A stretch of DNA of 64,000 nucleotides from assembly GCA_963702215.1 (NCBI GenBank), contig OY969726.1:1809533-1873532 (forward strand). Direction: 5' to 3'. Position 1 is the first letter of the stretch. Each line of letters starts with the position of its first letter. A program made the translations under genes and the position numbers. Under the pieces are notes generated by a model. It was not told the DNA's origin, ran no database searches, and saw only the letters and a program-made list of their open reading frames with translations. This DNA comes from an uncultured Bacteroidota bacterium (GTDB lineage: Bacteria; Bacteroidota; Ignavibacteria; Palsa-1295). Positions 9,825-63,694 of the stretch are shown one piece after another.

Positions 9825-11103
9825 ATGAATTTTGAAATCGCAGACGAGATCGACATAGTAACCCCAACATTTCCGGCGCGGACGGTGCCGCCGGTATCGC
9901 AGATGGCGCAAGGGCTAATTGGCTCGGAGATCTTAAAAATCGCCGCCGATATTCGCGCGATGGTGGCGGAGGGGCACACAATCTGCAATCTCACCGTTGG
10001 CGATTTCGATCCAAAATACTTCCCGATCCCGAGGAGCCCTGCGAACGTCGATCGAAGCGGCGCTCGACGCCGGCGAAACGAATTATCCGCCGTCGGATGG
10101 AATGTTGAACGCTTCGCAAAGCCGTGAAAAGCTTTTACGAACGGCGGCTTGGCCTGGATTATCCAACCGAATCCTTCATCATCACGAGTGGCGCGCGGCC
10201 AGCGATTTATTCCACGTATGCCACGCTGATCGACGAAGGCGATAAGGTGGTTTACCCGGTTCCATCGTGGAATAATAATCATTATTGCCACGTGGCCCGC
10301 GCAACATGGGAACGTGCGGTCTGCCGCCCGGAGGATGCGTTTCCTTCCCACTCGCGAAGTGCTGGATGGCAAACTCGCCGATGCCAAATTGCTTTCGCTC
10401 TGCTCGCCGCTCAATCCGGCGGGCACCGCGTTTACCCGCGAGGCGCTGGAAGGAATTTGCGATCTCGTGATTGATGAGAATGATCGTCGCGGTCTCGGAT
10501 GACCGACCGCTTTTCATAATGTACGATCAGGTATATTGGATGCTGACGTTTGGCGAGACGGTGCATTACAACCCGGTTTCGCTTCGACCGGAGCTGGCTG
10601 CGAATACGATCTTTGTCGATGGCATCAGCAAAGCCTTCGCTGCAACGGGTGTGCGCGTCGGGTGGGCCGTGGCCGCGCCGGATGTTGCGCATCGCATGTC
10701 CAACATTTTGGGGCATATCGGTGCCTGGGCGCCTCGAGCGGAGCAGGTCGCCACGGCGGCGCTCCTCCTCGATGATGACGCCATCGATGGCTACCACGCA
10801 ACGATGATCGCGGAAATCGAGGCGCGCTTGAATCTGCTGTATCACGGCATTCGCGATTTGCGCGAAGCCGGGTTCCCCATGGATGCGATTACGCCGATGG
10901 GTGCGATTTACCTTACCGCGCGCTTCGATCTGATCGGCCGCAAATCCCCATTGGGAACGACTTTCGAGACAAACGAAGATATTCGCAAGTATTTGCTCGA
11001 AGAGGTGCGGCTGGCGGTCGTGCCGTTCCAGGCATTTGGTTCCGAAGGCAATTCGAGGCTGGTTCCGGCTCTCCGCCGGTGCGGTTTCGATGGAAGCCAT
11101 TGA
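9825..11103 (+). pseudogene. class I/II PLP-dependent aminotransferase, fragmented over at least four reading frames
   Basis: Consecutive ORF pieces recapitulate an aminotransferase: 9825-10127 (MNFEIADEIDIV...ICNLTVGDFD), 10124-10300 (FIITSGARPAIYSTYATLIDEGDKVVYPVPSWNNN), 10314-10502 (LSLCSPLNPAGTAFTREALEGICDL) and 10471-11103 (PLP-lysine motif GISKAFAATGVRVGW plus the C-terminal domain). Confidence 0.65.
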
Positions 11104-35075: not shown

Positions 35076-35489
35076 TCAGACTCGTTTCTTCAATTGCTCT
35101 TTGATATTTCGAACGTCTTCAAGAACGGCGGCCCAGGTTACTTCCCGAATAGGTTTGGAAATTCGCATCATGAGAAGAATTTGTTCGCTATTCGCGACTA
35201 CTTTTTCTTCGAGTTCCAAAAATTCGGCTTTTGTAATCGCGGCGCGAAGCCATCGCTTCATTTTGTTGCGATCATGTGCTCGCTTATAGGAACGTTTCGG
35301 AGCCAGAAGCAGGAACCGAATTCCCGCATCCCCTGCGGGCAGCGGACGTTTTGCCCAGGCACTTTCCAAAATGGATGAGCGATCATTCAGCGAAGACAGG
35401 CGAATCCATTTCCGGTTCGCAAAAAACCATGCGATATTTTCGCGGCCTGCTAAGGAATGCCGGCGATCGAGTGTGAGTCGGGAACCCAT
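35076..35489 (-). CDS. rnpA: ribonuclease P protein component
   Basis: The basic RnpA core is FLLLAPKRSYKRAHDRNKMKRWLRAA. It lies between rpmH and yidD, as in the canonical rpmH-rnpA-yidD arrangement. Confidence 0.8.
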   Translation of the reverse strand: MGSRLTLDRRHSLAGRENIAWFFANRKWIRLSSLNDRSSILESAWAKRPLPAGDAGIRFLLLAPKRSYKRAHDRNKMKRWLRAAITKAEFLELEEKVVANSEQILLMMRISKPIREVTWAAVLEDVRNIKEQLKKRV

Positions 35490-35549
35490 GAAAAAAGGAT
35501 GACGGATGAACGCCACAGGGCATAACCCTCATCCTTCACCCTTCATCCC

Positions 35550-35702
35550 TCAGCCTTTTCTTTCGTCGGAGACGGTAAGCTTGTGCCGGCCTTTGGCGCG
35601 GCGAGAGGCCAGCACGCGGCGGCCGTTTTTCGTCGCCATCCGTGAGCGGAATCCATGTTTGTTGGCGCGGCGGCGCCGGCTGGGTTGGTAGGTACGTTTC
35701 AT
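35550..35702 (-). CDS. rpmH: 50S ribosomal protein L34
   Basis: Manual translation of the minus strand gives [50 protein letters not shown]. This gene is not in the ORF track because it is shorter than 60 aa. Confidence 0.88.
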
Positions 35703-36845: not shown

Positions 36846-36862
36846 ATTCATAATTCATAGAA
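36846..36862. repeat. partial copy of the heptamer-array repeat arm
   Basis: AAATTCATAATTCATAG matches the right-arm core CTTCATAATTCATAG of copy 2. It sits in an AT-rich intergenic region that also carries the AATTCCTAATTC/G tandem. Confidence 0.35.
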
Positions 36863-36987
36863 AACTATCTAAATCGTCCATAATCGCCATTTCGAGTTCC
36901 ACAGTTCATGAAAAGACCTCCTTTCCTTTTTCAATGAGCCAAGCACCGAATTCCTAATTCTCAATTCCTAATTGCTAATTGAAATAG

Positions 36988-37248
36988 GTGCCTATCAAAA
37001 CACCATACAATATAATACCTATTTTGCCGGATGGTTCGAAATCCGAAAGATATAATATTGCGGGCACCTACCCTCGCGTCCGGGTCGCGGTGAATAGCCC
37101 GAAAGCCACGCCGTTTTTTCCCGGCGGCCTCAAAGCCGATATCGAGGAACTTTTAGGTTCTGAAATCGACATCGTAACCGAAAACGCCCTTCATCAACTT
37201 ATTCGGAACCAAATTTTGCGCGACGCCCGACCAGTCTTAATGCTTTGA
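36988..37248 (+). CDS. degenerate nucleotidyltransferase (MNT-type) domain protein/fragment
   Basis: The C-terminal half matches small nucleotidyltransferases (LKADIEELLGSEIDIVTENALHQLIRNQILRDARPV). The catalytic GS...DxD segment appears to be deleted (RVAVNSPKATP where RVAVFGSYARGEATP is expected). Confidence 0.35.
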   Translation: MPIKTPYNIIPILPDGSKSERYNIAGTYPRVRVAVNSPKATPFFPGGLKADIEELLGSEIDIVTENALHQLIRNQILRDARPVLML

Positions 37249-47199: not shown

Positions 47200-47577
47200 T
47201 CAAGTTAACCGGATATTGCCGGAATTTCGGATCGTCGGTAAGGATGGGAATATTTTCCACAATGCCTTGAGCAATAATAAGGCGATCGAACGGATCGTGA
47301 CGATGCTGCGCAGTCGAATAATTTCAGAGAGATGAGAAGGTAAAATAGATAGCGTTTGAATGCCTCGATCGTTCACATTCTTTTCGATAAGTCCCTCAAA
47401 CGGGACTGGCAGGCTCAATTTCTGAATAGAGGTCTTAATCGCAATTTCCCACGGGCTTGCAGTGCTCAGTAAAATGTCATTTGTCACATCCTCAACTATC
47501 GATTTCCATTTTGATCCAGCCTTTTTATCATCGGTGGCAAGCCACAAAAATGCATGCGTATTGAGCAATACTCTCAT
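47200..47577 (-). CDS. vapC: PIN-domain toxin VapC, with a C-terminal frameshift near 47300
   Basis: The N-terminus is MRVLLNTHAFLWL...SPWEIAIK. The conserved C-terminal HRHDPFDRLIIAQGIVENIPILTDDPKFRQY is encoded in the -1 frame downstream of position about 47300. Confidence 0.7.
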   Translation of the reverse strand: MRVLLNTHAFLWLATDDKKAGSKWKSIVEDVTNDILLSTASPWEIAIKTSIQKLSLPVPFEGLIEKNVNDRGIQTLSILPSHLSEIIRLRSIVTIRSIALLLLKALWKIFPSLPTIRNSGNIRLT

Positions 47578-47579
47578 GA

Positions 47580-47807
47580 TTACATGTAATCTTTAAAATC
47601 CTCGAGTGGCTCATCGAAATCGTCCGCAATCCACACTTTGCCTATTAGGCTTCCGACAAATCCGCGTTTCACCAGGCCGCCATTAAAAGGCATTACCTTC
47701 GCAACCGGTTTTTCATGTTCGGTAAGAATAACCTCCTCGCCATGCAGCACATCGGCCAGAACGCTGGCTATGTGCGCCGTGGCTTCTTCAATCGTGATCT
47801 GGTGCAT
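47580..47807 (-). CDS. type II antitoxin (Phd/YefM/VapB-like)
   Basis: 75 aa acidic protein immediately upstream of vapC with a 2-bp gap. Its N-terminus MHQITIEEATAHIASVL is typical of an antitoxin. Confidence 0.6.
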   Translation of the reverse strand: MHQITIEEATAHIASVLADVLHGEEVILTEHEKPVAKVMPFNGGLVKRGFVGSLIGKVWIADDFDEPLEDFKDYM

Positions 47808-47855: not shown

Positions 47856-49673
47856 TCATTTCACCTCAAAGTCAATATTCGCGATGGTCCAGCGGGGTCG
47901 CGCATCGAATTCTTTTGGGAACTCGCCGGTGGGAACACCGAAGTGCCAGGGCCGCACGGAGCCGGGGTCGTACACGCCCGTTCCGTCGCGTGAAAGGTAC
48001 GCGCGCGCGCGATAGCTTGCGGTTGGTATTTGATCGAAGGCGAATTTACGTTCGCCGTGCGGCAACACCTTTTGCGCGGCCACCGCGCCGCCTTGCAGGA
48101 CTTGCAGGACTTGCACGACGAGTGCGCTCCTCGGATTTTGCGCGAAAAAAGAATCGGCTATTGTAATTGTTCCCGATATTTTTCCAAAATCGCGAATGTT
48201 CGCGGTTTGGAAATGATACTGCAGGACCGTGTCCACCGCCGGACGTTCCCGCGCGGCGATCGGGCTTCGAATGCCCGCGGTTCGAATCGTCACCGTGTAC
48301 CAGGAATTCGAAAGCAAGCTATCGGATGGCGTAAGATACACGCGCGCATCGTCAGACCAGCGAAAGACCGTCTTGACGAGATGATGGCCAGAATCGGTCA
48401 GCGTAATCGCTTTCTCGGCAGAATCGTGGTTCACCGCATCGCTGAAGGAAATTGGGAAGGAGGGCAGCGCGGAAACATCGCGCGTGCTATCGCGAATGCC
48501 CATCGAAGTAAATGCCGGCGGCACGGGGGCATTCATCGAAGCCGGAGTCGTAAAATCCAACTTATAGGCGGAATCGCTCAACGGATTGTGCGAACGATCG
48601 TGGATGCGGTCGCGAATGCCCTCCAGCGTGTACTCGCGATTCGACGCGATTGGGGTTCCCAACAGCAGCAGCATCTGCTCGGGATGGGCGTGTGGATGCT
48701 CGCGGAACGCCGCCACTACATCCAAAGGACCCGAAGAGGACGAAAGTTTAAAATTCTCAGCACGAACATCCCCGCTATCGATCGCTTCTGAAAAATGGGC
48801 GCGAAGATGGCGCAAATCGACGATCTCCACATCCGAAAGTTCCGGTTTGATCGTATCCGTCGGCGGGGACATTCGAATGTACATGCCGCTCGTAATCGCA
48901 CTATCCAAAATGGCATCGCCGGCGGGAATGCCGAACGCATCCACGCCGGGATCATAGACTTTATTGCGATAGACATCGCCAATCGCGAACACGCGATACC
49001 GGTGCCCGACTTTCATCGCGCGGAACTGCCACAGACCCTGATCGTTCGGCTGCGTAAGCTGATCGGGCGGAGTGTGCGTGAAGTTGAGTGTATCCGGGCG
49101 CTGAACGGAAATATCGTAGGCGAATACGAACAGGTCTGAAGGCTTCATAGGCGGCGCGTGGATGGGCGTGAGCAAATAGCCGGATAGAAGACCCGTATCG
49201 ATAAGCGGGCCGGTAGAAAACGTAAGAAAATATGGTTCCTCAAGCGCGGCACCCGTGCCGGTGAGAAGCCGCGCTTTCAGGTCGCGTGAAAGTTCCACCG
49301 TGTAGGTGGTGGAATCTTTGAGCGTTGGGAGATCGACACGCACTTCGTTCGACCCCGACCAGTGAAAGGTGGGTGTGCCATTCAAATACGGCGTGATCGT
49401 AAACGCCGTCGCAAACGAAGGCTGATCGACATCGCGCTGAAAATGGAACCAGAGATACGTGCTCGTGGAAACATTTATTTGCCGGTGATGCGGAATGACC
49501 GAATCAATCGCCGGGCGCGTGGTGTCTATCGGTCCTCCCGGCGGGGGCTGCTGCGAAGCGCAGGAGGAGAGGATAAGTATGAGGTATGAAGTATGAACTA
49601 TGAAAAGGGAACTTCGCGGTATGAAGAGCCTAAGGCTGCGCCGCATTGCAGCGCTCTTTTTTTCATACTTCAT
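47856..49673 (-). CDS. hypothetical lipoprotein (605 aa) with Ig-like domains
   Basis: It has a lipobox LILILSSCAS. The 5' end, including the start codon and the signal-peptide core, is encoded by a heptamer-repeat element. No functional homology was recognised. Confidence 0.5.
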   Translation of the reverse strand: MKYEKKSAAMRRSLRLFIPRSSLFIVHTSYLILILSSCASQQPPPGGPIDTTRPAIDSVIPHHRQINVSTSTYLWFHFQRDVDQPSFATAFTITPYLNGTPTFHWSGSNEVRVDLPTLKDSTTYTVELSRDLKARLLTGTGAALEEPYFLTFSTGPLIDTGLLSGYLLTPIHAPPMKPSDLFVFAYDISVQRPDTLNFTHTPPDQLTQPNDQGLWQFRAMKVGHRYRVFAIGDVYRNKVYDPGVDAFGIPAGDAILDSAITSGMYIRMSPPTDTIKPELSDVEIVDLRHLRAHFSEAIDSGDVRAENFKLSSSSGPLDVVAAFREHPHAHPEQMLLLLGTPIASNREYTLEGIRDRIHDRSHNPLSDSAYKLDFTTPASMNAPVPPAFTSMGIRDSTRDVSALPSFPISFSDAVNHDSAEKAITLTDSGHHLVKTVFRWSDDARVYLTPSDSLLSNSWYTVTIRTAGIRSPIAARERPAVDTVLQYHFQTANIRDFGKISGTITIADSFFAQNPRSALVVQVLQVLQGGAVAAQKVLPHGERKFAFDQIPTASYRARAYLSRDGTGVYDPGSVRPWHFGVPTGEFPKEFDARPRWTIANIDFEVK

Positions 49674-49690
49674 AATTCAAACATCATAAT
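49566..49690. repeat. inverted-repeat element built from TTCATAN heptamer arrays (copy 1)
   Basis: The left arm is GATAAGTATGAGGTATGAAGTATGAACTATGAAAAGGG and the right arm is TTTTTCATACTTCATAATTCAAACATCATAATG, with about 45 bp between them. It shares 20-24 nt arms with the element at 62839-63254. Confidence 0.6.
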
Positions 49691-49695
49691 GTTCC

Positions 49696-50637
49696 TCACG
49701 CAGCAACGGATTTGTTCTGGAAATAGTCCACCGTTTCACGGAGGCCTTCGATCAGCGTCATCTCCGGCTGCCAGCCGAGCACCTTCGCGGCATGGTCGTA
49801 GCTGCACACGCTTCGCTGCTGCTCGCCCGCTTTGGCCTCGCCGTGCTTCGCTTCGGCTTCGCCATTCGTCACAAGCTCACTCAGCACCTGAAAGATTTCG
49901 TTCACGTCCGTTTCGGTGGCCGTCGAGAGATTGATAATATCGGAACCGGATAGCTTATCCAGGGCCAGCATGTGCGCGCGGACGACGTCGCCAACGTAAA
50001 CATAATCGCGCGTTTGCGTGCCATCCCCGTTGATGACGCATTCGTTTCCATCCAACAATTTCTCGGTAAAAATCGCAACCACGCCGGCTTCGCCATGCGG
50101 CGATTGTCGCGGGCCATACACGTTGGTATATCGGAATGCAACATACGGCATCTTATGCACTTGCTCGTAGTAATGCAGATACAATTCAATGCTCCGTTTT
50201 GCAACACCATAGGGCGAAATAGGGCGCGTGGGATGTTTTTCATCGGCGGGGAAATAATCCTGCTCGCCATAGATCGCGCCGCCGGTTGAAGCGAGCATGA
50301 ATCGCTTGAGGGTTCCCACTTCTCTGGCCGCTTCGAGCAAATTGAGCGAGCCGATAATATTCTGCTCGCAATCGAAGACCGGATCGGCCACACTTTTGCG
50401 CACATCGAGCTGGGCCGCATGATGATTGACGATCTCGAATTTATGCTCGCGGAAGATCCGCCGCACGAGTTCGCGGTCTGTAATATCGCCCTGAATAAAC
50501 TCAGCTTTGGGGTTTAGATTGTCGGTCGAACCCGAGCTTAAATTGTCAAGTATGGCAACCGTATCGCCGCGCGCAATAAACGCATCCACAATATGGGACC
50601 CGATAAATCCCGCTCCGCCCGTTACTAATACGTTCAC
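49696..50637 (-). CDS. NAD-dependent epimerase/dehydratase (UDP-sugar 4-epimerase / UDP-glucuronate decarboxylase-like)
   Basis: It has VLVTGGAGFIGSH and the YxxxK catalytic motif (YGVAKRSIE). Confidence 0.85.
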   Translation of the reverse strand: MNVLVTGGAGFIGSHIVDAFIARGDTVAILDNLSSGSTDNLNPKAEFIQGDITDRELVRRIFREHKFEIVNHHAAQLDVRKSVADPVFDCEQNIIGSLNLLEAAREVGTLKRFMLASTGGAIYGEQDYFPADEKHPTRPISPYGVAKRSIELYLHYYEQVHKMPYVAFRYTNVYGPRQSPHGEAGVVAIFTEKLLDGNECVINGDGTQTRDYVYVGDVVRAHMLALDKLSGSDIINLSTATETDVNEIFQVLSELVTNGEAEAKHGEAKAGEQQRSVCSYDHAAKVLGWQPEMTLIEGLRETVDYFQNKSVAA

Positions 50638-62051: not shown

Positions 62052-62840
62052 TTACCGTCCCTTTCTTCGCCCTCGCAGTTCCGCCAACACAATGGCCGCG
62101 CTCACCGCCACATTCAGCGATTCGCCGGAACCATATTTCGGAATAATCACCTGGCGGCTCGCCATCTGCAAAAGTTCCGGCTCGATACCCCGGCCTTCGG
62201 TGCCAAAAAGCAGCACGCACTTTTCCGGAAAATCGAATTCGAACACCGAAGTTGCCGAACCCTCGACCGTCGCTGCTATGATTTCGCGCCCTTCGCGAAG
62301 CGCTGGCAGGCGTTTGTTCAGATCCGCGTTGGTTTCTATTCCAACATCGAAGATCGCACCTTGGGTGCTGCGCACAACCTTCGGCGCGAAGGGGTCGGCG
62401 GTGCCATCGCCCAGCAGAATGCTCTCCACGCCGAACCACGCACACGTGCGAATTACGGTTCCCACATTGCCGGGATCCTGCACGCTATCGAGGGCAATTA
62501 CCACGTCCCCCTTCACTTCGGCTGGCCGCGAGGGCAACCGCAAAATGGTGAACCAGCCTTGCGGCTCCCGCGCATCCGTAATTCGAACGGCGTTTTTGGG
62601 CGAGAGCATATAACTTTCGATCCCGAGCGATTCCGCCCGCTCGACAAGCGCGGGATTTTGGCTTATCGCTTTCTCCGTAACCGCGATATAAAGAATGAGC
62701 TTCGGAGCTTTCTCAAGCGCCGCTTCGAAAAGGTGCGGCCCCTCCGCGACAAATTCCGAATCGCCGCGGCGCGCTTTCGGATTCCGCAATAGTTCTGCGA
62801 TATGTTTCGAACGTAATTCTGTTAACGGTGTCAATGTCAA
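62052..62840 (-). CDS. rlmB: SpoU/TrmH-family rRNA 2'-O-methyltransferase (RlmB-like)
   Basis: It has an N-terminal L7Ae-like substrate-binding domain and the SPOUT motifs VIALDSVQDPGNVGTVIRT, LLFGTEGRGI and IPKYGSGESLNVAVSAAIVL. It uses a TTG start at 62840. Confidence 0.85.
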   Translation of the reverse strand: MTLTPLTELRSKHIAELLRNPKARRGDSEFVAEGPHLFEAALEKAPKLILYIAVTEKAISQNPALVERAESLGIESYMLSPKNAVRITDAREPQGWFTILRLPSRPAEVKGDVVIALDSVQDPGNVGTVIRTCAWFGVESILLGDGTADPFAPKVVRSTQGAIFDVGIETNADLNKRLPALREGREIIAATVEGSATSVFEFDFPEKCVLLFGTEGRGIEPELLQMASRQVIIPKYGSGESLNVAVSAAIVLAELRGRRKGR

Positions 62841-63254
62841 AAAGTATGAGGTATGAAGTATGAAGTTTGAAAATGGCTCGTTATCTTCCTTTGAGGATAA
62901 GAACGATCTATTTTAAAGTGGCAATCAATTCGTTCCTTTCGCTACTGAGATTATCGAGCAGAGATCAGTCGACCGTACCAGCTTCGACAAGAATCTTCAG
63001 CCAGCACCGAGTCTCTTCGATCTCTTGAAGCGCGCCCGTCAGCTTACTGTTGTAATCGGCTTTCGATTCGTGCGAGAGGCTACGCGAAATTGCGCTCCAG
63101 CGTAAGTGCCACTTCGAAGTACTTGCTGGTCAATAACTTTCCCGCCGGAAGTATGAAGTTTGGTATAGAGCCGACTCATGCGAAGCGCAAACTTTTTTGT
63201 TCTATCGCCGGGTAGTTATTCATGCCCTATTTCATACTTCATAATTCATAGTTG
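62839..63254. repeat. inverted-repeat element built from TTCATAN heptamer arrays (copy 2, about 415 bp) filling the rlmB-sdhD intergenic region
   Basis: The left arm is AAAAGTATGAGGTATGAAGTATGAAGTTTGAAAATGG (62839-62875), with an internal partial arm GGAAGTATGAAGTTTGGTAT (63147-63166). The right arm is CTATTTCATACTTCATAATTCATAGTTG (63227-63254). The arms are near-identical to copy 1. Confidence 0.55.
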
Positions 63255-63259
63255 CCCGG

Positions 63260-63694
63260 TCAAGGCTTCAGCGGATCGAAGGTGAGAATCGTATTCCAGC
63301 CGACCGCTACGAAAATAATTCCGGCAACAACGAGCACTCCAAATATCGTGAGGCCAACGGCCGGGCGGATCTTATAATCGCGTACGATATTCCAGCAGCC
63401 TTGCAAGCCGTGGTACATTCCGATGGTGATGAAACCGAGATAAAGTCCCTTGAACCATGGCGAAGCAAGCCGCGAAGCCGTCTCGCCATAATCGTGCCCG
63501 CTTACCTGATTATAGTGCATCATGATATAATGCCCAACGAGCAGCACGACGAGCGCCAGTCCCGTAACGCGCTGCAACCACCACGCAGGCGCGCCGCTCC
63601 GTCTCGGACGTGAATAGCTGCGAATGAGCCGATTCGAACGCACCGACTCCTCTTCTCCGACGGGGATTGCGGATACTTGTGCTTCTGCTTCCAT
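63260..63694 (-). CDS. sdhD: succinate dehydrogenase hydrophobic membrane anchor subunit (SdhD-like)
   Basis: 144 aa with three TM helices. WWLQRVTGLALVVLLVGH has a heme-ligand His context. It follows the sdhC-like gene directly. Confidence 0.6.
   Translation of the reverse strand: MEAEAQVSAIPVGEEESVRSNRLIRSYSRPRRSGAPAWWLQRVTGLALVVLLVGHYIMMHYNQVSGHDYGETASRLASPWFKGLYLGFITIGMYHGLQGCWNIVRDYKIRPAVGLTIFGVLVVAGIIFVAVGWNTILTFDPLKP

Follow-up and report, generated by a model that had tools for sequence, protein, structure and literature searches.

Inverted heptamer arrays form hairpins at gene junctions of an Ignavibacteria genome, one probably a decayed cassette resembling the 23S rRNA intervening sequences

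We have analyzed a stretch of 64,000 nucleotides (the window) from an uncultured Bacteroidota bacterium of the Ignavibacteria lineage Palsa-1295 (contig OY969726.1, positions 1,809,533 to 1,873,532), in which tandem heptamers recur as inverted pairs at two gene junctions, here named copy 1 and copy 2. Most likely these arrays are the two sides of long hairpins, that is inverted repeats whose stems measure ~24-38 bp, and would as such represent a widespread class of extragenic palindromes in which the short tandem repeats are for the most part heptamers. Within its spacer, copy 2 carries what is evidently the pseudogene of a four-helix-bundle protein of the kind found in 23S rRNA intervening sequences (intervening-sequence protein, IVP, also S23p), an identity which a preliminary description of the window had missed, and because of this content the classification of copy 2 changes. 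It is quite probable that copy 2 is an IVP cassette resembling a 23S rRNA intervening sequence (IVS) and that copy 1 is a cargo-less heptamer hairpin. The wider interpretation, in which both forms make up a stem of the RNase III type, is the one we favor with rather less assurance, and the RNase III mechanism taken by itself, which is drawn by analogy, is put forward tentatively.

The pattern TTCATANTTCATANTTCA, with at most two mismatches, has eight matches in the window, every one of them at the two main sites; dinucleotide shuffles gave an expectation of 0.05 matches and reached eight in 0 of 100 cases. On the plus strand NTATGAA arrays are paired with TTCATAN arrays, forming the inverted pairs 49569-49697 (copy 1) and 62842-63253 (copy 2). 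The preliminary description had proposed a dispersed inverted-repeat element of heptamers lying on gene 5' ends at these places, and both the pattern count and a repeat finder agree with it; the element is, in addition, hairpin-forming. The two arms of copy 1 are 38 nt each, 82% complementary and 53 nt apart, so that the inverted pair stands while the originally given spacer of about 45 bp does not. Those of copy 2 are 87-90% complementary over a paired stretch of 21-23 nt, which is within the ~20-30 bp of the long terminal stem of an IVS, and are 357-366 nt apart rather than the ~340 bp first estimated. The extra internal arm of copy 2 is indeed present and pairs with 63224-63247 across 52 nt. 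An exact 23-mer (AAGTATGAGGTATGAAGTATGAA) is common to the left arms of the two copies and an exact 19-mer (TTTCATACTTCATAATTCA) to their right arms. Each arm is composed of 3-5 heptamer units, three tandem 7-nt units being the minimum taken for an array. The order on the transcribed (minus) strand is at both copies NTATGAA arm, loop, TTCATAN arm, and the flanking genes are without exception encoded on this strand; the 5' arms are intergenic and the 3' arm of copy 1 lies inside the open reading frame (ORF) of a lipoprotein. Copy 1, copy 2 and a further array just outside the window each adjoin the 5' end of a gene. The window has a GC content of 54% and no tRNA, and neither an rRNA nor any Rfam family at gathering threshold was found in it; the sole match below that threshold, to TeloSII_ncR30 (22 bits vs a gathering score of 86), was dismissed.

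Translation of the copy 2 spacer on the minus strand gives, in two frames, ...VIDQQVLRSGTYAGAQFRVA / SHESKADYNSKLTGALQEIEETRCWLKILVEAGTVD*SLLDNLSSERNELIATLK. When spliced from these two reading frames into one query, the remnant matched TIGR02436 ("four helix bundle protein") with 34.8 bits against a cut-off of 24, the solved Bacteroides protein PDB 2RLD with E=2.2e-8, and PF05635 with E=1.8e-6 and 28.6 bits, which is below the gathering score of 33.8; a protein homologue search with the same spliced remnant yielded no candidate. An intact IVP ORF would have ~110-125 aa and four helices, and the remnant falls short of this: helix 1 is missing, the profile match beginning only at position 14-19, the frame shifts near 63078, and an in-frame TGA follows ...EAGTVD. 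Its status as a pseudogene is argued by the truncation and the nonsense codon, which are not errors of the indel type. Single frameshifts in the window are to be treated with caution, because split genes, namely kdsD (SIS + CBS) and uvrD of the source contig, ENA ERZ25039458 contig_59834 with 86.8 kb (L275, 11459-12455 and 13687-15989), and kdsA of the sister assembly L263 (4850-5676), suggest that the assemblies probably contain indel errors. The outer arms of copy 2 are paired in both the minimum free energy and the centroid structures, and its internal arm, which overlaps the IVP remnant at the truncated 5' end, gives with the 5' arm a 52-nt loop geometry like that of copy 1; homology between this mini-loop and the loop of copy 1 was considered and rejected on alignment.

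The gene order sdhC-sdhD-rlmB-kdsA-kdsD-lptC is conserved among relatives, and loci lacking the element were compared, as the preliminary description had called for. The three relatives closest to the window, with rlmB 79-84% identical, have 115-125 nt of ordinary sequence between sdhD and rlmB, in which there is neither an array nor an IVP gene, and their rlmB starts with ATG. In the window this ancestral spacer is replaced, rlmB has a TTG start and there is a duplication of TTGACA. Copy 2 is absent from the closest relatives, as would be the case for a gained element, and it thus appears to be a lineage-specific gain. That one arm ends 1 nt before a TTG of rlmB, as had been described, is correct, and the alignment of orthologues suggests the second TTG, at 62834, as the ancestral start position. 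Target-site duplications were looked for at both copies and none was convincing, the replaced spacer of copy 2 offering only the local TTGACATTGACA repeat. In one further relative (L264, 3311-3994) a 227-aa HTH_3/HTH_31 gene fills the sdhD–rlmB junction, and this junction would therefore have taken different insertions in different lineages.

The RNA of copy 1 folds, as the preliminary description had asked to be checked, into a single long stem of -47.8 kcal/mol (z=-5.5; 0 of 200 shuffles as stable), the opposite strand giving z=-4.3. There is no S23p/IVP ORF in its 53-nt loop. The earlier claim that this hairpin provides the start region and the hydrophobic h-region of the signal peptide of the 605-aa lipoprotein is borne out by the reading of the ORF and by the translated arm, as the 3' arm encodes ...LFIVHTSYLILILSS-C, with the lipobox Cys codon at 49562-49560; the loop ATG at 49646-49644 is the start in the public gene call (MRRSLRL...). 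A scan for sigma-70 promoters found none on the transcribed strand, and a separate promoter for the lipoprotein could not be placed. No intrinsic terminator, with a GC-rich stem ahead of a U-run, was found on the minus strand, the sole terminator-like site being on the plus strand inside the loop of copy 1.

Homologues of the lipoprotein (n = 79) come from metagenome-assembled genomes named as Candidatus Kapabacteria, Ignavibacteriota or Bacteroidota, and their N-termini include periodic peptides such as RITNYELRITK, IRSSSFVIRK, LLLTSYLLPLTSY and FIFHTSYFIF. We gathered 21 orthologous lipoprotein loci and examined 15 junctions, and 11 of the 15 have a heptamer array between the epimerase stop and the lipobox Cys codon. 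A clear inverted two-arm hairpin is present in nine of these, L003 and L013 being degenerate; the junctions of L005, L014, L015 and L019 have no heptamer array. Copy 1 is thus not a recent insertion. The arrays are retained although the lipoproteins of the genomes that keep them are only 58-77% identical. The units are TTCATAC in the window and L007, TTCGTAA/TTCGTCA in L001, L003, L006 and L017, TTCTTAC in L008, L011 and L012, TTCTTAA in L010 and TTCCTCA in L013, and within one locus the unit type is identical in both arms. Duplex energies across loci were best within a locus or unit type (mean -33 vs -15 kcal/mol). RNAalifold of the nine hairpins gave a 24-bp stem with 10 compensatory pairs; 88% of the cells were paired vs 74.1±1.8 in shuffles (0/500) and at most 48% in slid controls, double-change cells numbered 30 vs 13.2±2.5 (0/500), and the covariation score was 0.389 vs 0.144 (0/500). 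The unit type is discordant with the protein tree: the window lipoprotein is 75-76% identical to those of the TTCGTAA loci and has its unit in common with a relative of 68%, which points to arms that turn over rather than substitute slowly.

Across orthologues the start codon is in the loop or in the 5' arm and the 3' arm encodes the h-region. At most loci a conserved A-rich tract in the loop is followed by ATGCGC (M-R) before the 3' arm is read as h-region, and in-frame ATGs within NTATGAA arms (MKYE...) occur in the window and L007. The translated arms use stop-free units, for example TTCGTCA for TTCGTAA in L017 at the cost of one mismatch per unit, and on this ground the 3' arm appears to be really translated. 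One locus departs from this scheme: L011 (~9980-10060) reads ATG CGC TGA at the conserved loop start and has no other in-frame start before the lipobox, its public gene call is shortened to 457 aa, and it may be an inactive allele or a sequencing error. No IVP gene was found in the 21 orthologous lipoprotein loci with tblastn or jackhmmer; a weak jackhmmer match (L003, 20650-20874) looks spurious.

The association between heptamer arrays and IVP genes extends well beyond the window. Among 67 small ORFs lying within 60 nt of an array in metagenome loci, PF05635 was the commonest family (n = 6) and no other exceeded two. Seven of eight IVP genes checked in array-bearing metagenome loci were bracketed by inverted short tandem repeats; five of the seven had GTATGAR upstream and YTCATAC downstream, one (L173:5898) had a GTATGAR array upstream and a short, loosely related array downstream, and one had a period of ~9. 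The eighth (L173:3217) had an AT-rich inverted repeat only. An independent sample was drawn by protein alone: tblastn returned 31 plasmid records, of which ten, from nine genera and four phyla (Nostoc, Anabaena, Planktothrix, Pseudanabaena, Euhalothece, Bernardetia, Chondrinema, Treponema, and Chlorohelix), were read. Period-7 arrays were present beside all ten "four helix bundle protein" genes, and the flank-to-flank inverted-repeat score was 19-30 in seven of the ten, with a shuffle maximum of at most 14; the array pairs included AATTCAA/TTTTGAA, AAGTCGG/CGACCTC, CCAGTGA/CTGGTCA, and GATTAGT/ACTAATC. Taking metagenomes and plasmids together, 17 of the 18 intact IVP genes examined have short tandem repeats beside them, mostly heptamers and usually inverted on both sides. 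In 50 kb of the Bernardetia replicon, with 48 genes, a single long heptamer array (109 nt) is present, and it flanks the IVP gene together with its inverted partner, the sole inverted pair of this stretch; two other arrays that were detected are weak 21-nt matches. The arrangement of the window, with an NTATGAA arm on the 5' side and a TTCATAN arm on the 3' side of the IVP coding strand, recurs in all cassettes of the GTATGAA type. Recognition of specific heptamers by their own IVP is disfavored, as IVPs that are 50-60% identical have GTATGAR, GATTAGT, GAAAGNG or CCAGTGA. Array-flanked four-helix-bundle genes are often embedded within operons or systems, namely in a cas2/cas1 gap, upstream of cas1, in an RND adaptor/permease gap and in a helicase/N6-methylase gap (L270, Anabaena pANACY.01; L269, Chondrinema; L274, Chlorohelix; L273, Pseudanabaena). 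A search of the open-access literature gave no paper that connects IVP genes in general with inverted heptamer arrays, and the literal arm sequences occurred in no relevant paper.

The distribution of the arms was addressed in metagenomes and viral contigs. The exact arm 20-mer TATGAGGTATGAAGTATGAA is present in at least 120 metagenome stretches with GC contents of 0.27-0.66, so that of the two circumstances which the preliminary description had named as telling against a mobile repeat, the keeping of the copy 1 array in orthologues holds while the existence of these copies only does not. Among the matches listed there were 114 distinct instances of the 20-mer: 47 are cargo-less hairpins with loops under 150 nt, three have loops of 350-600 nt, all three enclosing IVP genes, 12 lie close to the end of a contig and in one the order of the arms is reversed. 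Of the 47 cargo-less hairpins, 27 lie between co-directional genes, seven between convergent genes, none between divergent genes and one inside an ORF; the hairpins sit in transcribed spacers between co-directional or convergent genes and never between divergent ones. An inverton, i.e., an invertible promoter, was rejected as most loops are 0-60 nt. The near-identical loci L151 and L248 differ by a 14-nt (two-unit) indel in one arm, and a second array (GTTCCGA/GTTCCGG) beside the hairpin, on its upstream side, differs between them by exactly one 7-nt unit. The pattern TTCATANTTCATANTTCATA was found in at least 119 viral contigs. In viral contigs inverted arrays also bracket single genes, among them a Dam methylase (L102), an HTH gene (L055/L059), and unknowns. 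The arrays of phage-like contigs are composed of TTCATAA, TCATAAC, TTCTTAA or TTTTCAA/TCTTGAA units, and the upstream stop codon is often inside the array. A blastn search with a repeat-rich phage-like contig against a phage collection gave one unannotated match, and of 442 pattern matches in an alignment-based search of viral contigs for IVP none was confirmed.

In the interpretation we favor a complete cassette would consist of a 5' arm, an IVP/S23p four-helix-bundle gene (PF05635/TIGR02436) and a 3' arm, in this order. Copy 2 would be such a cassette, acquired by this lineage in the sdhD–rlmB spacer and at present in decay, and recombination between its internal and outer 3' arms would remove the remnant and leave an empty hairpin like copy 1; such a product is suggested because the internal arm is a direct repeat of the outer 3' arm and a 52-nt loop would remain. 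Copy 1 would be the cargo-less form, long kept between the epimerase stop and the lipoprotein, and the latter would now start inside it and have its h-region read from the 3' arm. In a polycistronic transcript the arms would pair into a perfect or near-perfect double-stranded RNA stem, which RNase III would cut as it does in the 23S IVSs and in the heptamer hairpin of the Haemophilus hmw1A 5' untranslated region. By its cut the enzyme would part the flanking cistrons from one another, insulate them and determine how strongly the downstream gene is expressed, changes in unit number would tune the effect of processing, and the cassette would tolerate or exploit insertion into operons as it does in rRNA.

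Several points weigh against this interpretation. The role at the RNA level in this organism is argued by analogy, and at copy 1 a cut by RNase III would be awkward, as it would split the loop ATG from the body of the lipoprotein ORF unless processing is partial or the lipoprotein has its own promoter, none having been found by the scan. The frameshift of the IVP remnant is, by itself, weak evidence of decay. None of the 15 orthologous copy 1 junctions has an IVP gene, and for this reason the origin of the empty hairpin from an IVP cassette is deduced only from the structure of copy 2. About 45% of the listed 20-mer instances (51 of 114) have no partner of the same type within 700 nt, a few of which look like chance matches in coding sequence; in the window and its contig the arrays at 36846, 36946, and ~64400 are likewise without a partner, and the phage-like IMG/VR contigs L077, L090, and L028 have arrays of one orientation in nearly every intergenic gap. 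As unpaired arrays are common and the gaps of phage-like contigs are filled with them, the heptamer array may serve some function by itself, independently of a hairpin. It should also be noted that the metagenome loci were chosen for carrying an array and that the independent sample is small, that the covariation counts are not independent since each stem has four repeated units, and that template switching at quasi-palindromes on the level of DNA, instead of selection on RNA, could keep the arms complementary.

This last mechanism is also the core of a neutral explanation, in which slippage-prone repeats and quasi-palindrome correction make and maintain hairpins devoid of function. Tandem arrays and template switching can homogenize arms, and the array sequence does vary freely; against this are the retention of arrays in 11 of 15 genomes at 58-77% lipoprotein identity, the stop-free units of the translated arm, the exclusion of hairpins from divergent intergenic regions and the specific association with one gene family, which together make a purely neutral origin highly improbable. 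A rather unlikely alternative, which the preliminary description had named in outline and which accounts for the unpaired arrays being common, is that the arrays are binding sites for a single-strand nucleic-acid-binding protein (cold-shock-domain or S1-type OB folds, one heptamer per domain) acting as translation-initiation or regulatory leaders, with the hairpin as a secondary feature, e.g., a switch melted by the protein. Three of the four sites on the contig adjoin start codons, the NTATGAA units themselves give ATGs (MKYE... in copy 1, MKYENRR... in a lipoprotein of the M28 peptidase family), phage-like contigs have one-orientation arrays in nearly every gap, and a 7-nt period suits a single-strand footprint better than a helical repeat; furthermore S1, Csp or CsrA binding has been proposed for TAACTGA direct repeats just upstream of starts (PMC4679880). 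A pure single-strand site would have no need for arms that co-vary across genomes, however, the many unrelated heptamers, even within one genome, make a single sequence-specific factor unlikely, and the bracketing of IVP genes by inverted arms is left unexplained.

The preliminary description had also raised the possibility of a miniature inverted-repeat transposable element (MITE), that is a non-autonomous transposon mobilized in trans whose terminal inverted repeats would be the heptamer arrays. The two copies, which are 13 kb apart, do agree exactly over 23 nt of one arm and 19 nt of the other, the closest relatives lack copy 2, and at the sdhD–rlmB junction of L264 another gene (HTH) is inserted. 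No duplication of a target site can be defined, however, the ancestral 115-nt sdhD–rlmB spacer being replaced and not interrupted; only the arms align between copies while the internal sequences are unrelated, so that homology does not run over the whole length, and the arms vary in unit number, type, and sequence. The same 20-mer is found in organisms with GC contents of 0.27-0.66, as expected from a simple two-unit alphabet and not from common descent, the position of copy 1 is kept in 11 of 15 genomes, and no transposase is adjacent to or associated with the arrays. All this renders a MITE quite unlikely. We give still less credence to a contingency locus, comparable to the CTCTT repeats in the opa leaders of Neisseria, in which slippage by 7 nt in the signal-peptide arm would switch or tune a surface lipoprotein. 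The length of the unit is not divisible by 3, the array is in the part of a surface Ig-like lipoprotein gene that encodes the signal peptide, a further lipoprotein (M28 peptidase) has its start in an array, whole-unit indels are seen between close strains of another lineage (L151 vs L248), Coxiella strains differ in heptamer copy number (PMC4990558) and hmw1A offers a precedent (PMC12721329). Yet independent assemblies show no difference in unit number at the copy 1 junction (L001 equals L002 and L003 equals L004), NTATGAA arrays give ATGs in all three frames and would buffer frameshifts, copy 2 adjoins a housekeeping methyltransferase, and L011 lacks a usable start through a point change and not through slippage.

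A more ambitious version of the cassette interpretation would have IVP/S23p and the inverted heptamer arrays form one self-propagating system, in a partnership like that of REPIN and RAYT (repetitive extragenic palindromic doublets and the REP-associated tyrosine transposases). The pentameric four-helix-bundle protein, a homologue of Avd, the accessory protein of diversity-generating retroelements, would bind or act on arms of about five heptamers, hairpins of the copy 1 type would be non-autonomous relics, and the same element would have given rise to the IVSs of 23S rRNA and to many STRR-like heptamer repeats of cyanobacteria and Bacteroidota. That all these detailed parts hold jointly is unlikely.

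The features on which the above is based, together with the neighboring genes and the unpaired arrays, are collected in Table 1.

Table 1. Heptamer arrays, the IVP remnant and adjoining genes in the window.
Feature	Position	Strand	Remarks
Copy 2 5' arm, CTATGAATTATGAAGTATGAAA	63230..63253	-	6 nt after the sdhD stop codon
Copy 2 internal 3'-type arm (…CCAAACTTCATACTTC…)	63148..63171	-	pairs with the 5' arm, 52-nt loop; direct repeat of the outer 3' arm
Decayed four-helix-bundle / 23S rRNA intervening-sequence protein (IVP, S23p) gene	62908..63179	-	profile and structure matches
Copy 2 3' arm, TTTTCAAACTTCATACTTCATACCTCATACTT	62842..62872	-	ends 1 nt before TTGACATTGACA at the rlmB start
SpoU/TrmH-family rRNA methyltransferase (rlmB-like), downstream of copy 2	62052..62840	-	
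Succinate dehydrogenase membrane subunit (Sdh_cyt), upstream of copy 2	63260..63694	-	
Copy 1 5' arm, GAGGAACATTATGATGTTTGAATTATGAAGTATGAAAA (NTATGAA units)	49660..49697	-	starts at the epimerase stop codon 49696-49698; in-frame ATG at 49673
Copy 1 loop, 53 nt	49607..49659	-	inner GC-rich mini-hairpin; ATG 49646-49644, A-rich tract before the ATG
Copy 1 3' arm, TTTTCATAGTTCATACTTCATACCTCATACTTATCCTC	49569..49606	-	translated as signal-peptide h-region LFIVHTSYLILIL
Big_5 (bacterial Ig-like) lipoprotein	47856..49673	-	605 aa from the 5'-arm ATG, 596 aa from the loop ATG
NAD-dependent epimerase/dehydratase, upstream gene	49696..50637	-	stop codon is the hairpin base
Two-unit array TTCATAATTCATAG, unpaired	36846..36862	+	downstream of an SDR gene
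AATTCCT/AATTCTC/AATTGCT heptamer array, without inverted partner	36946..36981	+	orientation as the 36846 array

The partial copy at 36846-36862 noted in the preliminary description does exist, with two units and no inverted partner. Directly after the nearby array of the AATTCCT type, which the preliminary description does not mention, there is an ORF of 86 aa (36988-37248) without a Pfam match; its C-terminus resembles, by eye, proteins of the nucleotidyltransferase family, and it may be a gene fragment. A fourth array, also unpaired (TTTCATATTTCATACTTCAAACTTCATA; 8187-8220 in L275, i.e., ~64390-64422), is on the same contig ~400 nt past the end of the window, at the start of a Peptidase_M28 lipoprotein whose N-terminus MKYENRRLFFLTGIFAIALIGC begins at an ATG from the NTATGAA units. 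Between the copy 1 lipoprotein and an amino-acid permease, the region 47200-47807 includes a Phd/YefM-type antitoxin (47580-47807, Pfam E=1.4e-7) beside a 125-aa ORF without a Pfam match; as relatives hold other genes at the same place (a DUF433/DUF5615 pair in L001, a different ORF in L003), it looks like a variable toxin-antitoxin slot. In the region 35076-35702 a 50-aa ORF was identified by eye as ribosomal protein L34 (rpmH), and an rnpA-like ORF comes after it; the rpmH-rnpA pair is often near the replication origin.

This locus and those related to it link three subjects, which are the IVP/S23p family, the origin of the 23S rRNA IVSs and the simple heptamer repeats, and the IVS of rRNA appears to be just one of the places where a more general cassette has landed. 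Operon junctions retain cargo-less hairpins whose arms co-vary, and at copy 1 an unusual exaptation appears to have taken place, in which the arm of a hairpin doubles as the hydrophobic core of a lipoprotein signal peptide by means of stop-avoiding unit variants.

Among the known systems, REP and REPIN sequences are extragenic palindromes of transcribed spacers that are rare between divergent genes, and RAYT is a HUH transposase of the IS200/IS605 type. The elements described here resemble them as palindromes in transcribed spacers, in having one small gene flanked by inverted repeats and in their many cargo-less hairpins; they differ in that the flanked gene is an IVP four-helix bundle without known catalytic activity and not a RAYT transposase, and in that the arms are tandem heptamers of many sequences instead of one conserved REP. 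Heptanucleotide repeats of cyanobacteria, named STRR, were reportedly described by Mazel et al. in 1990, and their unit sequences include CCCCAGT, TTGGTCA, and CAACAGT. Similar intergenic direct repeats of TAACTGA lie by start codons in Beggiatoaceae, Cyanobacteria, and Bacteroidetes; binding by S1, Csp or CsrA was proposed for them, CspB binding one heptamer per protein, and there was one inverted case among 170 repeat sets (MacGregor, 2015; PMC4679880). The likeness to STRR and TAACTGA repeats is in the tandem 7-nt units, their intergenic position, often directly upstream of starts, their presence in Cyanobacteria and Bacteroidetes and their sporadic phylogenetic distribution. Those are direct repeats, however, whereas the arrays of the window are complementary, co-varying hairpin pairs of other units that bracket IVP genes; the units TTCATAN/NTATGAA match no named STRR unit, and a CTGGTCA array flanks the IVP gene of Euhalothece.

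In Haemophilus influenzae hmw1A, (ATCTTTC)n is one arm of a hairpin in the 5' untranslated region, whose processing by RNase III sets adhesin expression (PMC12721329). As in copy 1, a heptamer arm of a long hairpin is present in the 5' region of a surface-protein mRNA, and the unit number varies in hmw1A; the difference is that only one arm is repetitive there, the other being G-rich, that the array is in the untranslated and not in the coding region, that there is no IVP gene, and that both the organism and the repeat sequence are others. The IVS of Coxiella is a "selfish" element of 428 nt with a 28-bp terminal stem cut by RNase III, in which an S23p ORF in the loop is under reductive evolution and is preceded by 2-3 strain-variable GACAGAT heptamers, and the origin, function, and mobility of IVSs are described as unclear (PMC4990558). 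The ORF-bearing 23S IVSs of Coxiella, Leptospira, Xanthomonas, and Brucella have a terminal stem around an S23p/IVP ORF that is often decaying, and copy 2 has the same parts in the same order with its IVP evidently a pseudogene; only copy 2 has S23p/IVP sequence in its loop. Unlike the 23S IVSs, which are in helix 25 or 45 of the 23S rRNA, both copies in the window lie between protein-coding genes, their stems are wholly tandem heptamers, and the cargo-less copy 1 overlaps a coding start; excision by RNase III, a feature of the 23S IVS, is for the window copies predicted by analogy. Both elements are best filed as extensions of known kinds, which are the 23S IVSs and the heptamer repeats of the STRR/TAACTGA type.

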